This document shows positions 5,410 to 41,792 of a stretch of 43,660 bases of DNA, piece by piece (position 1 is the stretch's first letter; each line of letters begins with the position of its first letter). Made by a program: the position numbers and the translations under genes. This DNA comes from an uncultured Candidatus Saccharibacteria bacterium (GTDB lineage Bacteria > Patescibacteriota > Minisyncoccia > Phycocordibacterales > UBA2100). The notes under the pieces are model-generated. The model made no database searches. It was not told where the DNA came from and was given only the letters and a program-made list of their open reading frames with translations. Location of the stretch: assembly GCA_964584225.1 (NCBI GenBank), contig CAZOZG010000003.1, positions 14,915 to 58,574 on the forward strand. Reading direction: 5' to 3'.

Positions 5410-6009
5410 ATGAACGGAGGTTTCGGTTATCTTGGCGCAGCCCACGCTTACCGAAAGGAGAAACTTTCAGAGCTTCCAAGAAACGAAGTGAAGGCGATGA
5501 TCGATGAGTGGAATAAAAAGACTCGCCTGCAGAAAATTTTCACCGAACTGACGCCCACGGCCTATGGCAGCGCGTGGATCGTTGCCGCAAAAGAGATCCA
5601 CGGTGGATACGAACAGGAATTACGTGAAAGCGACGAGCGCATGAGTCGGCGCTCCGGAGCTGTCATGATTATTCTCGTCACATACATCGTGAGTCTCGTA
5701 CTCATTGGCAACATGCTTGATTCTGGCATCACATGGGTCAGAGGGCTTGTTGCCTGGGCGATCGTCGGGATTATTGCAGGTGGAATGATGTCGGTTGCGA
5801 ACGCGATACACAGAAAAGACCCTGAACTTGCGCCGTTGCGCCGTATCTACTGGGTCGCTCAAGGCATTATCGCTCTAACGATCAGCGGTGGATCAATGGC
5901 TATCGTCGCGAGGTATGGCTTCGAGATGATTTCAACTGCGCTTCTGGTCTTTTGTTTCCTCGGCGGTGTGATGTTCACATTCAGGGGATGCGCAGCAAAG
6001 CAAGTATAA
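5410..6009 (+). CDS. Hypothetical membrane protein (4 C-terminal TM segments)
   Basis: SD AAGGAG before ATG; hydrophobic C-terminal half; terminator follows. Confidence 0.7.
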   Translation: MNGGFGYLGAAHAYRKEKLSELPRNEVKAMIDEWNKKTRLQKIFTELTPTAYGSAWIVAAKEIHGGYEQELRESDERMSRRSGAVMIILVTYIVSLVLIGNMLDSGITWVRGLVAWAIVGIIAGGMMSVANAIHRKDPELAPLRRIYWVAQGIIALTISGGSMAIVARYGFEMISTALLVFCFLGGVMFTFRGCAAKQV

Positions 6010-30201: not shown

Positions 30202-30909
30202 TTACCGGACGTCTTTGTATTCGTGGGTAAACGGCCGGTGGAAGAGAACGGGCCAGAGGTAGTTGAGCATGTAGCGGAGATTCGTGCGGAAAATTCCTTC
30301 CCTCTCAAAGCGGCGTGCAGACGCGCGAGCGTAGAAATTCATCCGAAAGAGTGTCTTCCCTACCTTGCTCAGGCGGCGCGCAAGATCGGTGTCTTCGCCG
30401 TAAAATTTTATAGATTTGTCGAAGCCGCCGATTTTCTCGAGTGCGTCGCGCTTGACGACAAAATTGCCGCCCAAAATCATGTAGCCGACCAGCCAATACG
30501 TGACCGGCGCAAACGCCCACAGCGCATTTAAAATCCACAAACGCCAAAAGGAGCTACCGAAGTAGCGGCGCGGCCCGCTCAAAGACACGATGTCGGGCCG
30601 CGCCGCGAAATACATCTCGGCTTTTTCAATCCAATCGTTGGTAATCAACGTATCTGCATCGATGTACGCGAGGTAGTCACTGTGCGAACTTTCAAATCCG
30701 CGCTGCCGCGCGGCAGGCAATCCTTTCTCTGATTCAAAGACAATGCGCGCACCATGCGCGGTCGCGATTCCTGACGTCTTGTCTGTCGATGCGTTATCAA
30801 CCACAATAATCTCTTTGAATTTTCCTCGCGAACATTTCTGTGCGACATCGAGTGTCTCGGCAATCACCGATTCTTCATTGTGCGCACAAATGATGAGCGT
30901 GATATCCAT
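30202..30909 (-). CDS. Family 2 glycosyltransferase
   Basis: ITLIICAHNEE, VDNASTD, YIDAD, GGFD...YGEDTD, SARR. Confidence 0.93.
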   Translation of the reverse strand: MDITLIICAHNEESVIAETLDVAQKCSRGKFKEIIVVDNASTDKTSGIATAHGARIVFESEKGLPAARQRGFESSHSDYLAYIDADTLITNDWIEKAEMYFAARPDIVSLSGPRRYFGSSFWRLWILNALWAFAPVTYWLVGYMILGGNFVVKRDALEKIGGFDKSIKFYGEDTDLARRLSKVGKTLFRMNFYARASARRFEREGIFRTNLRYMLNYLWPVLFHRPFTHEYKDVR

Positions 30910-30911
30910 AG

Positions 30912-31253
30912 CTAGTGCATGTGCGCGTCGAGAAGCACGATCGAACGGCGTATTGCCACGAACGCATAACCCCACAAAATCGGAAGCCACAGCGGCATGA
31001 CGCCGAGGAGTGAATTGCGAGCAAACGTCTCGACACCGGTCGCGATGAAAATGTATTCGGAACAAAACAAAACGCAAAAACCGAAGAGGAAAAAAACGAA
31101 GTCGCGTTTGTTGAGGGCAATCGCAAACGCGGTCAAGATGATAAGTCCGTACAATATCGACAAGAGGTAGTCATTCTGCACCAGGGGGATCAGCCCGATC
31201 ATGACAACGACCGGCACGGCTTGGAGCAACAGACGCTGCGCCAGTATGTACAT
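30912..31253 (-). CDS. DUF2878-like membrane protein
   Basis: SEYIFIATG...MPLWLPILWG; TATACT 6 nt before ATG. Confidence 0.65.
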   Translation of the reverse strand: MYILAQRLLLQAVPVVVMIGLIPLVQNDYLLSILYGLIILTAFAIALNKRDFVFFLFGFCVLFCSEYIFIATGVETFARNSLLGVMPLWLPILWGYAFVAIRRSIVLLDAHMH

Positions 31254-31267
31254 ATCGTAAGTATATC

Positions 31268-31435
31268 GGGGCGATCACGTGTCGGGAATCCTGCTCCCCC
31301 GCTTCGCCGGGGCGAAGCTCCTCCGCAGCCGGCCACCCTCGCTTTATACCAATGGCGCTCGGGTTGGCTTCGATTCCCGCACGAACAATCAGTAAAGCTG
31401 AAAACTCCCGCACCAGGCGAGAGTTTTCAGCTTCA
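31268..31435 (-). repeat. Gene-3'-end-associated structured element, copy B (behind tRNA-His; divergent core)
   Basis: Hairpin 31395-31433, inverted T-arm copy 31369-31384, two hairpins, direct copy GATTCCCGAC..GATCGCCC at 31290-31268. Confidence 0.7.
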
Positions 31436-31437
31436 TG

Positions 31438-31510
31438 GGCGATCGTCGGGAATCGAACCCGAATTGAGAGCTCCACAAGCTCCAGTGTTGACCGTTACAC
31501 CACGATCGCC
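31438..31510 (-). tRNA. tRNA-His(GUG)
   Basis: G-1/C73, anticodon loop TTGTGGA, T-arm TCGGG-TTCGATT-CCCGA. Confidence 0.95.
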
Positions 31511-31556
31511 ATCACACACCCACTGTATAGCAAAATTTCGGCTCTAAAGCGAGACT

Positions 31557-32654
31557 TTAGCGCACATCCTGCTCGGTCGGAGTACTCGTCGCAACATCGA
31601 CGATAGAGAACGAAATGCGCCCAATAATCTGCCCATACGACGTGACGACATTCACGCGCCATGCGCCCGCTTCTGGATCTGGTCGCGCACTGTAGCCGCG
31701 GAAGCCGCCGTCCCGGCCGCCCTGGATCGGATACTGGACTGTCTGCAGCGTCACCCACGAGTTGCTCGTCTCATCAAAATGCTGCCATTCATGATAGACC
31801 GTGATCGCAAGGCTACTCGGCGCGAAGATCGCGCTCCACACGTACACTGTCTCACCCGGCGCGTGATGAAAAACAGTATTGTAGCGAAGAAACGATTCGT
31901 ACCATGGCACCGGCTCATATGAGACAAGGTAGCCATCAGCCGACCGTTGCACGCTGTGAAGTACGCCGGCGTCTTTGAGTGCAAGAGGAAGCGGCGGAAT
32001 CGCGCCGGTGAAATACAAAATGTTGAAAACAACATAAATGATCGCGATGGACCGTCCGAGTGCGAAAGCCTGCGTGCGTCGTTCGGGCAAATAGAAGAAG
32101 AGAACGCTCGCGAACACTGCGACAATGACGAGCGCGACTGCTCCGCTCAGAAGAAACATGGATGGACCGATCTGCCCAAACACGACCGGAAAAAAGAAAA
32201 TGAGAAACGAAAAGAGTACTGTAAAGTAAATCGACATCTGGAATGAGAAGCGCCGATAGAAATGCACAAATCGCTCATTGCCGATCAAAAGCAGACCGAC
32301 GGCGACGACAAAAATCCAACTCCACGAATACGCCGCGCTGCGGCTATAGAGTGAAACAAACGCGCTGAAAAGGCCGCCAAAAGCGAACTGCGCCACGACG
32401 GGAACCAGCGGCAACATATTGAGGAACAATTGTTGTCGCAATCGGCCAAGCTCGATGCAATTCAAAAGTATGATGCACGTAGCTGCAGCAACGAGGTAAA
32501 AGAAAAGCAGGGCATTCGACGTCCACAGATCAACGCGGCGCAGAAGAATCAAGTTGTCTGAAATAACGCCCGCGATAAGGCCGATCGGTGAGACGTAGCG
32601 GATGTACCAATCGGCGAGCTCTTCGATGCTCTTAGGGATACGAAATGGTTTCAT
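31557..32654 (-). CDS. Membrane protein with a C-terminal DUF2914-like domain
   Basis: QFAFGGLFSA; C-terminal SAIFAP..L...VYHEW, GGRDGGFRGYS, GAWRVNV. Confidence 0.75.
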   Translation of the reverse strand: MKPFRIPKSIEELADWYIRYVSPIGLIAGVISDNLILLRRVDLWTSNALLFFYLVAAATCIILLNCIELGRLRQQLFLNMLPLVPVVAQFAFGGLFSAFVSLYSRSAAYSWSWIFVVAVGLLLIGNERFVHFYRRFSFQMSIYFTVLFSFLIFFFPVVFGQIGPSMFLLSGAVALVIVAVFASVLFFYLPERRTQAFALGRSIAIIYVVFNILYFTGAIPPLPLALKDAGVLHSVQRSADGYLVSYEPVPWYESFLRYNTVFHHAPGETVYVWSAIFAPSSLAITVYHEWQHFDETSNSWVTLQTVQYPIQGGRDGGFRGYSARPDPEAGAWRVNVVTSYGQIIGRISFSIVDVATSTPTEQDVR

Positions 32655-34157: not shown

Positions 34158-34302
34158 CGTATACCTCCATTTAGAGTGAGCCAGAACATTTCGTCTGGAT
34201 AGATGCGTCAGAAACCTTTTCTCCTCAGCAATGTATAGCAAAAATAATCAAAACGCGCAGCAATCGACTAGACGGGGTTTGATACTATCAAAATGCACCT
34301 TG

Positions 34303-34386
34303 TGCGCAGGGGGAGACTCGAACTCCCATGCCCGTGAGGGCGCTACCACCTCAAGGTAGTACGTCTACCAATTTCGCCACCTGCGC
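34303..34386 (-). tRNA. tRNA-Leu(GAG)
   Basis: Anticodon arm CTACC-TTGAGGT-GGTAG, long variable arm, TTCGAG T-loop. Confidence 0.95.
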
Positions 34387-35187: not shown

Positions 35188-35324
35188 CTTGTGGTCACGG
35201 ATAATTTTCTTGCCGTCGCAAGAAAATTTCCTCGACCCCGCCGACCGTTTCGCCTACCGGCGAAACATGTCTCCGGCCCGCACAAGTGCACGAAAAAGCA
35301 AAGCAGTTTGCTTTTTCAGCCTTG
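35188..35324 (-). repeat. Gene-3'-end-associated structured element, copy C (behind tRNA-Val)
   Basis: CTTGTGCG inverted copy, GGCCGGAG-hairpin-GGCGGGGTCG-hairpin-CGTGACCACAAG. Confidence 0.8.
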
Positions 35325-35396
35325 TGCGCGGTGAGGGATTTGAACCCCCGACCCTCCCCGTGTAAAGGGGTTGCTCTACCACTGAGCTAACCGCGC
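35325..35396 (-). tRNA. tRNA-Val(UAC)
   Basis: Anticodon loop TTTACAC; GGGGG-TTCAAAT-CCCTC T-arm. Confidence 0.95.
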
Positions 35397-35430: not shown

Positions 35431-35522
35431 TGTGGTCACGCATAAATCGCTGCTGCGATTTTGCGCGACCCCGCCTCGCGCCGTCGCGCTCCGGCCGGCA
35501 CAAACTGCGCTTCGCTCGTTTG
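35431..35522 (-). repeat. Gene-3'-end-associated structured element, copy D (behind tRNA-Arg)
   Basis: GTTTGTGCC inverted copy, GGCCGGAG-hairpin-GAGGCGGGGTCG-hairpin-CGTGACCACA. Confidence 0.8.
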
Positions 35523-35594
35523 TGCCCCCGCGAGGAATCGAACCTCGATTGACGGCTTAGAAGTCCGCAGTTCTATCCATTGAACTACAGGGGC
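35523..35594 (-). tRNA. tRNA-Arg(UCU)
   Basis: Anticodon loop CTTCTAA; CGAGG-TTCGATT-CCTCG T-arm. Confidence 0.93.
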
Positions 35595-41705: not shown

Positions 41706-41707
41706 TG

Positions 41708-41792
41708 CGGAGGGGGTGAGATTCGAACTCACGGTGGGTTGCCCCACGCCGCATTTCAAGTGCGGTGCTTTAGACCACTCAGCCACCCCTCC
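41708..41792 (-). tRNA. tRNA-Ser(UGA)
   Basis: CCGCA-CTTGAAA-TGCGG anticodon arm, long variable arm, G73. Confidence 0.95.

Follow-up and report, generated by a model that had tools for sequence, protein, structure and literature searches.

Within the window (i.e., the whole 43,660-nt stretch of DNA analyzed here), an intact tRNA-His(GTG) gene is followed on the minus strand by an insert of ~165 nt, which holds no credible ORF and in which parts of the tRNA 3' end recur in antisense and in sense around a structured core (Table 1). The tRNA is separated from these echoes by a hairpin, recovered by repeat search as an inverted repeat with 17-nt arms that are 94% complementary, which, judging from its modeled fold, looks like an intrinsic terminator. 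What we call the module (31392-31269) lies directly behind the tRNA gene and on its strand. Its antisense piece, A', complements tRNA-His positions 54 to ~69, i.e., the T-loop, the 3' strand of the T-stem and the start of the acceptor 3' strand, contains one extra G and has its endpoint at the complement of T54. The core that follows comprises a first hairpin, the helix of which is broken by tandem G.A/A.G mismatches (C-GA-G on both strands) and one bulged A, and a second domain, the outer helix of which (CUGC/GCAG) pairs 31328-31325 with 31294-31291. The module ends with a sense copy, A2, which is split by a 4-nt ACGT insert, has the discriminator as its last base and forms with tRNA-His two direct repeats, one of 10 nt (31281-31290 and 31445-31454) and one of 8 nt (31269-31276 and 31437-31444); the inverted pairs of the trailer were likewise recovered by the repeat search. 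The ATG of the downstream membrane protein gene is found 15 bases past A2, and a family-2 glycosyltransferase gene comes next. A scan of the tRNA-His trailer revealed no promoter-like site upstream of the module, and the module contains no remnant of a D-arm or anticodon arm.

Table 1. Features at the tRNA-His locus, in window coordinates.
Feature	Position	Strand	Basis or remark
tRNA-His(GTG), intact	31509-31437	-	ARAGORN; Rfam RF00005, 59.9 bits
Terminator-like hairpin, 19 bp, A-tract before, U-rich tail after	31435-31393	-	MFE fold; terminator-like scan
A', 16-nt antisense piece TCGTGCGGGAATCGAA	31384-31369	-	Sequence; local alignment
78-nt structured core between A' and A2	31368-31291	-	
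Core hairpin 1	31368-31332	-	Folds
Core domain 2: outer helix, G-rich internal loops and inner hairpin 2	31328-31291	-	
Core hairpin 2, GCTTCGCC-CC-GGCGAAGC	31318-31301	-	Inverted repeat; RNAalifold
A2, second sense copy of tRNA positions 57-73, GATTCCCGAC-ACGT-GATCGCCC	31290-31269	-	
Next gene: 113-aa membrane protein, weak DUF2878 (Pfam)	31253-30912	-	Outside the element

A preliminary description of this DNA had arranged the hairpins, the antisense piece and the split direct copy around the core on the minus strand, and all of them lie where it placed them. It had also counted the 3' half of tRNA-His three times; the sense and antisense echoes are real, but "half" was an overstatement, given that the antisense piece covers positions 54 to ~69 only. 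Its image of a core sitting inside a T-loop survives as an analogy only, since the resident tRNA is intact and the entire module stands behind it.

The significance of the echoes was assessed across the 0.98-Mb source genome (G000; other G numbers denote related genomes), in which ARAGORN annotates 46 tRNA/tmRNA genes. The last 26 nt of each of these genes were locally aligned to their own 350 nt downstream, and 230 shuffled downstream stretches served as the null. The tRNA-His tail scored 25 in sense (null 99th percentile 19.4, maximum 22) and 26 in antisense (null 99th percentile 18, maximum 21), and when A' was compared with 37 anchored tRNA tails of G000, tRNA-His gave the best match. The T-arm matches thus lie far above the expectation from shuffled sequence, and the tail echoes reported earlier are confirmed as real. 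Additionally, the 183-nt spacer between tRNA-His and the next gene folds at -82.9 kcal/mol (z = -4.2), and none of 200 dinucleotide shuffles was as stable. As had been anticipated, the antisense piece is predicted to close on the sense copy around the two-hairpin core: in the MFE fold A' pairs with A2, and the two-domain core is therefore clamped on a helix, the 3' strand and free tail of which resemble the 3' side of the adjacent tRNA. An Rfam search of positions 30900-31700 returned the tRNA as its sole match at E<=10. Contigs of four DNA runs over positions 30700-32000 contain no joint, indel or variant; the contigs of one DNA run break at tRNA-His.

Elsewhere in the window, the other tRNA genes, namely Leu-GAG (34302-34386), Val-TAC (35324-35396), Arg-TCT (35522-35594) and Ser-TGA (41707-41792), show no 3'-end echo above the shuffled range. 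An exact 15-nt copy of the tRNA-His 3' end occurs 25.7 kb downstream, at 5756-5770 on the minus strand (C3:20670), inside a 199-aa ORF (5410-6009, plus strand) and with neither an antisense piece nor a core alongside; this copy is probably due to chance.

Comparison with congeners establishes at the DNA level that the tRNA-His module is an insertion relative to them. Among 21 tRNA-His loci of the genus (G000 itself counted), two carry a module, those of G000 and G026, and the cores of these two are unrelated. The tRNA-His of G008 is 100% identical to that of G000 and has an empty trailer. In G010, an orthologue of the 113-aa membrane protein (50% identity, E 5e-37) has no element before it, and the downstream gene starts 23 nt behind tRNA-His, vs 183 nt in G000. 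Moreover, the sequence past A2 in G000 is similar to the sequence past the tRNA in empty loci. The preliminary description had allowed that orthologous loci might show only terminator hairpins; most of them are simply empty, but the T-arm matches at the G000 locus still exceed those in shuffled sequence. A different arrangement is seen in G011, of the same genus (L023, ~1440-1500), where a variant tRNA-His 3' end, from T-arm to discriminator, lies 16 bases behind tRNA-His; this second 3' end comes without core or antisense piece and looks like a displaced older 3' end.

The closest relative of the core stands behind a different tRNA. A BLAST search of the core against 116 genomes of the genus produced one clear match, in G019, and one weak match, and a search of the spacer against its own genome found no second copy of the tRNA-His core, and this core type has two members among the genomes searched. 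The G019 stretch is 81% identical to the G000 core and is located behind tRNA-Asp. The antisense piece and the 18-nt sense copy that clamp it are both Asp-specific; the module as a whole sits behind a terminator hairpin that differs from that at the G000 tRNA-His. When the two modules were folded jointly with RNAalifold, 6 of the 30 predicted pairs were kept through double changes, two of them in the closing stem, one in hairpin 1 (a compensatory A-U to G-C change relative to the G019 element), one in hairpin 2 and two in the outer helix CUGC/GCAG. The closing of a stem by the antisense and direct copies, proposed earlier from the G000 sequence, is predicted by the fold, and the pairing survives two double changes between a tRNA-His and a tRNA-Asp context.

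Modules of this kind form a family. Each is a non-coding unit of ~110-170 nt directly behind a tRNA gene and on the same strand, and ~11 tRNA loci of G000 carry one as judged by eye, with six passing automated thresholds. The carriers are tRNA-His, Tyr, Leu(CAA), Ser(CGA), Phe, Asp, two Met and two Lys (in one of the latter A' is weak), and a further module lies 2 kb behind tRNA-Glu(CTC). Across the order, a loose three-part pattern (T-loop, antisense T-loop, T-loop piece) was matched in 314 of 401 genomes and in 192 of 223 genera, whereas the reversed-pattern control gave 1 match. An Rfam search of 39 other loci at E<=1 found no family that covers the cores, and full-text literature searches turned up no account of modules like these for either CPR bacteria or Clostridia; the group is very widespread and largely uncatalogued.

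To describe the modules in common terms, 100 further loci were collected, and 97 modules were parsed among 201 anchored tRNAs; the frequencies given for this set are biased because the selecting pattern demands an antisense T-loop, and, as related genomes are not independent, they are indicative. A2 ends at position 73 in 91 of the 97 modules and is perfect over 57-73 in 56 of these 91; its start is more variable, at 56-57 in 56 modules, at 60 in 12 and at 53 in 9. Identity beyond position 73 extends over 0-3 nt in 64/91 modules and over at least 10 nt in 16/91; seven of these 16 (7/91) are tandem units (at least 60 nt of flank identity). CCA follows A2 in 13 of the 84 modules whose tRNA gene does not encode it and is absent from A2 in 5 of the 7 whose tRNA gene does. 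An antisense acceptor 3' strand (at least 6 nt) is present in the spacer of 36/97 modules, whereas two controls each gave 8/97. The tRNA has an intact acceptor stem in 93/97 module carriers and in 101/104 non-carriers. Taken between species, modules come and go, and they stack in tandem.

Two stacked loci differ in kind. Behind a tRNA-Pro (L047; G276, 1400-1900) stand two near-identical tandem modules, the last copy of which is decayed, and behind a tRNA-Met (L039; G273, 1300-1700) stand two stacked modules with unrelated cores.

Within the parsed set, the arms follow the resident tRNA. A' is complementary to its own tRNA at position 57 in 89/97 modules (permuted mean 53), at position 59 in 90/97 (permuted mean 27, maximum 37), at position 63 in 83/97 (permuted mean 39) and at position 64 in 69/97 (permuted mean 24), all four counts being above all 200 permutations. 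Clusters of cores (at least 75% identity) span different tRNA species, at times inside one genome. At the G000 tRNA-Leu(CAA), A' is missing six central bases and A2 matches at 18/18 positions; because A2 is perfect despite the gap in A', it must have been copied from the tRNA and not from A'. In the L142/L059 pair, comparison of A' with a possible earlier target gives one base of each kind. At the G000 tRNA-Asp and in L041, A2 has drifted and A' still matches the tRNA, which means that the closing stem is not maintained everywhere.

The module behind tRNA-Glu(CTC) has a history of its own (C15:13150-15500). Some 2 kb of DNA with a lower GC content come after the tRNA gene and contain two ORFs, one kinase-like (~335 aa) and one of 270 aa. 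Beyond them lie, in this order, the heavily degraded remains of a tRNA-Glu 3' end, a terminator and a module in which the antisense piece and the core precede a 17/17 sense copy. This locus is a cargo insertion stacked on a module, and the 17/17 match of A2 beside a decayed tRNA-Glu 3' end hints that A2 is maintained by selection.

The fold and the GA-rich motifs of the modules are specific to the tRNA-sense strand. Specifically, in 90 of 96 distinct modules the tRNA-sense strand gives the more stable fold of the two (by 5.1 kcal/mol on average), and the motifs CGAG, CGAAG and GCGAAGC occur 136, 36 and 14 times in sense vs 14, 3 and 1 times in antisense. For the most frequent core type (27 cores), pairing was seen in 94.6% of cells, vs 36-58% with slid partners; double changes are seen in 14 of 18 pairs, and the covariation score was matched by none of 500 shuffles. 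The module core is a compact multi-helix structure, rich in tandem G.A pairs and GNA-type loops.

The known RNA that these modules most call to mind is RtT of E. coli (Rfam RF00391), which the preliminary description did not mention. In strain K-12, four rtT units stand behind tyrT and tyrV, each combining degenerate antisense T-arm sequence, with its endpoint at the complement of T54, a core CGAGCG...CGAGAG with further hairpins, and then tRNA-Tyr positions 59-76; in the RF00391 consensus structure, exactly these antisense and sense arms are base-paired with each other. Of 5426 E. coli genomes, 4726 contain RtT, with 1-9 units each. Passages of PMC4986893 describe two RtT-family RNAs of Actinobacillus, which adjoin a tRNA-Asn and a tRNA-Lys gene and were seen both on Northern blots and by RNA-seq, and refer to the release of RtT from the tyrT transcript and its link to amino-acid limitation (Bosl and Kersten, 1991, as cited there). 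An excerpt of PMC3318445 gives rttR as one of the repeated units, and a mobilome preprint reports, without explanation, raised exonuclease-resistant coverage at rttR.

Like an RtT unit, the tRNA-His module immediately follows a tRNA gene and lies on its strand. Both contain antisense T-loop/T-stem sequence that runs as far as the complement of T54, then a multi-helix core rich in GA, with CGAG motifs, and both end in a sense copy of the 3' end of their own tRNA. In both, the antisense arm closes on the sense copy, according to the RF00391 consensus for RtT and to the MFE and two-sequence folds for the module, and the variable presence of modules is paralleled by a copy number of RtT that varies between E. 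coli strains. The two also differ: the E. coli copy starts at position 59 and includes CCA, whereas the tRNA-His copy starts at 57 and lacks it; E. coli has tandem units at one tRNA species, whereas single units stand here behind many tRNA species and the lineage has several unrelated core types; and a terminator-like hairpin lies between tRNA-His and its module. The RF00391 model, which recovers the four E. coli units at 133-137 bits (gathering threshold 45 bits), gave no match in positions 30900-31700 at E<=10, none in the whole G000 genome at E<=1 and none in the 19 other modules of the order that were scored. Since the model is silent on the modules, their likeness to RtT is one of architecture, without demonstrable homology.

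The layout extends beyond this order. An exact-pattern scan over the genomes of 185,579 species yielded at least 120 loci, which are the matches first met and not a census. Among the 120 matches listed, 78 have a strong second copy of positions 57-73 that reaches position 73; among the 80 titled matches, labeled by hand, such a copy is found in 11/25 from CPR bacteria, 29/40 of Clostridia type and 11/15 others. The others among the matches listed include Elusimicrobiota, Gammaproteobacteria, Woesearchaeota and haloarchaea.

On balance, we incline to the view that the tRNA-His module is an RtT-like tRNA-trailer RNA element, read in the direction of the tRNA and duplicating and moving at the DNA level. 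By analogy with E. coli RtT, such an element would be transcribed together with its tRNA, at this locus by read-through of the hairpin at 31435-31393. It would mimic the 3' side of a tRNA with its closing helix and free tail, so that its 3' end could be defined by tRNA 3'-trimming enzymes. Spread to a new tRNA could occur by recombination or template switching at the repeats formed by the conserved T-loop and the tRNA end, a route that would need no dedicated recombinase. The tRNA-His copy itself may be decaying or insulated, because A2 carries the ACGT insert, A' an extra G, and a terminator precedes the module. A bolder version, which we consider rather improbable, is that the modules represent a new class of reprogrammable insertion element, in which A' guides the element to the T-loop and 3' end of a tRNA gene or transcript. 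Insertion would then copy the last 14-21 nt of the target, thereby making A2, the folded core might offer a handle for some enzyme, perhaps a housekeeping one, and the RtT of E. coli would be a domesticated or fossil member.

Much of the evidence for mobility could also be accommodated without any RNA function, if the modules were selfish, non-autonomous mobile DNA in which A' serves as a base-pairing guide, insertion generates A2 from the target in the manner of a long target-site duplication, and the hairpins are those of folded single-stranded DNA. This is possible, but we rate it as unlikely. Consistent with it, presence and absence of modules differ between congeners, unlike modules are stacked at one tRNA (L039), tandem units occur (L047; the 7/91 modules above), the same core clusters appear behind different tRNAs of one genome, and A2 is perfect at the G000 tRNA-Leu(CAA), where A' is without its mid-tail. 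GCGAAGC-type mini-hairpins and Y-GA-R tandem mismatches are stable in DNA too, and the tRNA-sense strand would be the lagging-strand template for co-oriented genes. G000 also has three genes for Y1 HUH (RAYT-like) proteins, but no enzyme tracks the modules: Y1_Tnp is found in 199 of 314 pattern-positive and in 37 of 87 pattern-negative genomes, and the hairpins flanking the three RAYT-like genes are absent from the tRNA modules. A resolvase profile search gave no match, and neither did a Y2_Tnp profile search, for which the Y2 control was equally silent, which makes that negative a weak one. The start of A2, ranging from 53 to 60, is unlike the product of a fixed staggered cut; the perfect A2 beside the decayed tRNA-Glu 3' end suggests selection on A2; and the one described relative, RtT, is a detected RNA in the published passages mentioned above. 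A tyrosine integrase offers another source of mobility, the module then being the relic of an element that entered the T-loop of tRNA-His, with the sense copies as attL and attR in a CIME-like remnant and the rest deleted. The direct repeat indeed spans the T-loop to the tRNA end, which is the classic identity block of T-loop integration sites, and accretion arrays at tRNA genes are known for tRNA-targeting integrative elements. Nevertheless, such a relic is very unlikely: both Phage_integrase (PF00589) matches in G000 map to other contigs (C14 and C10) and none to C3, the 78-nt core shows covariation and represents a folded, conserved unit and not a random leftover, and the antisense copy, ~80 nt off the crossover region, is foreign to a normal core site. 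In addition, if the element supplied the tRNA 3' end itself, each change of target would leave a chimeric tRNA behind, yet 93/97 carriers have intact acceptor stems. The preliminary description had already doubted an ordinary attL/attR scar, and rightly so, as the contig has no integrase and cores of one type stand behind tRNA-His in G000 and behind tRNA-Asp in G019, with arms re-matched to each.

There is finally the simplest account, namely that the echoes stem from a tandem duplication of tRNA-His that has since decayed, or that they resemble it by chance beside an ordinary terminator. The interruptions of A2 by 4 nt and of A' by 1 nt, as well as the exact 15-nt tail copy in an ORF 25.7 kb away, could be taken in this sense. 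However, the tail scores exceed those of all 230 shuffles, D-arm and anticodon-arm remnants are missing, and the layout recurs behind many tRNAs, in 314/401 genomes vs the single control match; contradicted by these pattern counts and shuffle scores and by the G000/G019 covariation, a duplicate or chance origin is hardly credible.

Several mobile elements share individual traits with the modules. Like attL/attR-bounded elements and CIMEs, modules show a direct repeat, stacking at one tRNA gene and presence or absence between relatives; unlike them, they have no integrase in or beside the insert, contain an antisense copy and a conserved folded core, and are not tied to one tRNA, since cores span tRNA species with local arms. 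Imperfect inverted arms that close a variable structured loop are also a property of integron attC sites, of the attP(+) of CTX phage and of IS200/IS605 elements, the fold of attC and CTX attP being strand-specific, as is that of the modules, and in IS608 an internal sequence pairs with the target. Nonetheless, module arms (10-20 nt) copy each target, whereas attC and CTX attP rely on a core site for IntI or XerCD, of which modules have no fixed counterpart; and, unlike all three, modules are flanked by a 14-21-nt target copy and have no linked recombinase that could be found. REP/REPIN sequences mobilized by RAYTs are likewise small gene-less hairpin elements in intergenic DNA, but the RAYT-flank hairpins occur as 2-5 near-exact copies each in G000, none of them in tRNA trailers, and RAYT presence does not track modules over the 401 genomes. 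Y1_Tnp was therefore ruled out as a required partner, on the grounds of hairpin mismatch and of the lack of co-occurrence in a hand cross-tabulation.

To our knowledge, RtT has for decades stood as an isolated peculiarity of a single tRNA operon of E. coli, without an accepted function. If the modules are of the same kind, the RtT layout would be a general tRNA-linked device and not a local oddity: they stand at about a quarter of the tRNA genes in a 0.98-Mb genome that can ill afford junk, they are present in most genomes of the order, and the wide scan, among the matches listed, places the layout also in gut Clostridia, Acidobacteriota, Gammaproteobacteria and some archaea. The fold could then be derived from many independent examples that covary, and there would be tractable hosts (E. 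coli, Clostridia) in which to probe both an RNA that mimics, and is antisense to, a tRNA 3' end and the way in which a gene-less element re-matches its arms to a new tRNA.

Some neighbors of the modules deserve mention. In G000, the terminator hairpins behind tRNA-Asp (C20:3453-3500) and tRNA-Ser(CGA) (C12:26660-26705) are near-copies of each other, so the hairpin may travel with the module and not belong to the tRNA locus. In an Acutalibacteraceae MAG, a Gut-1 RNA (RF01706, 56.6 bits, above threshold; L187:346-414) lies beside a module and not within it, ~45 nt behind its sense copy and second terminator; weaker Gut-1 matches occupy the same relative place in L278 and L180. The three RAYT-like Y1 HUH genes of G000 (C22:1761-2384, C19:15034-15711 and C10:9137-9808; open frames of 207-243 aa) are each flanked on both sides by their own inverted hairpin, and that of the C19 gene has a T-loop-like GGTTCGA loop.
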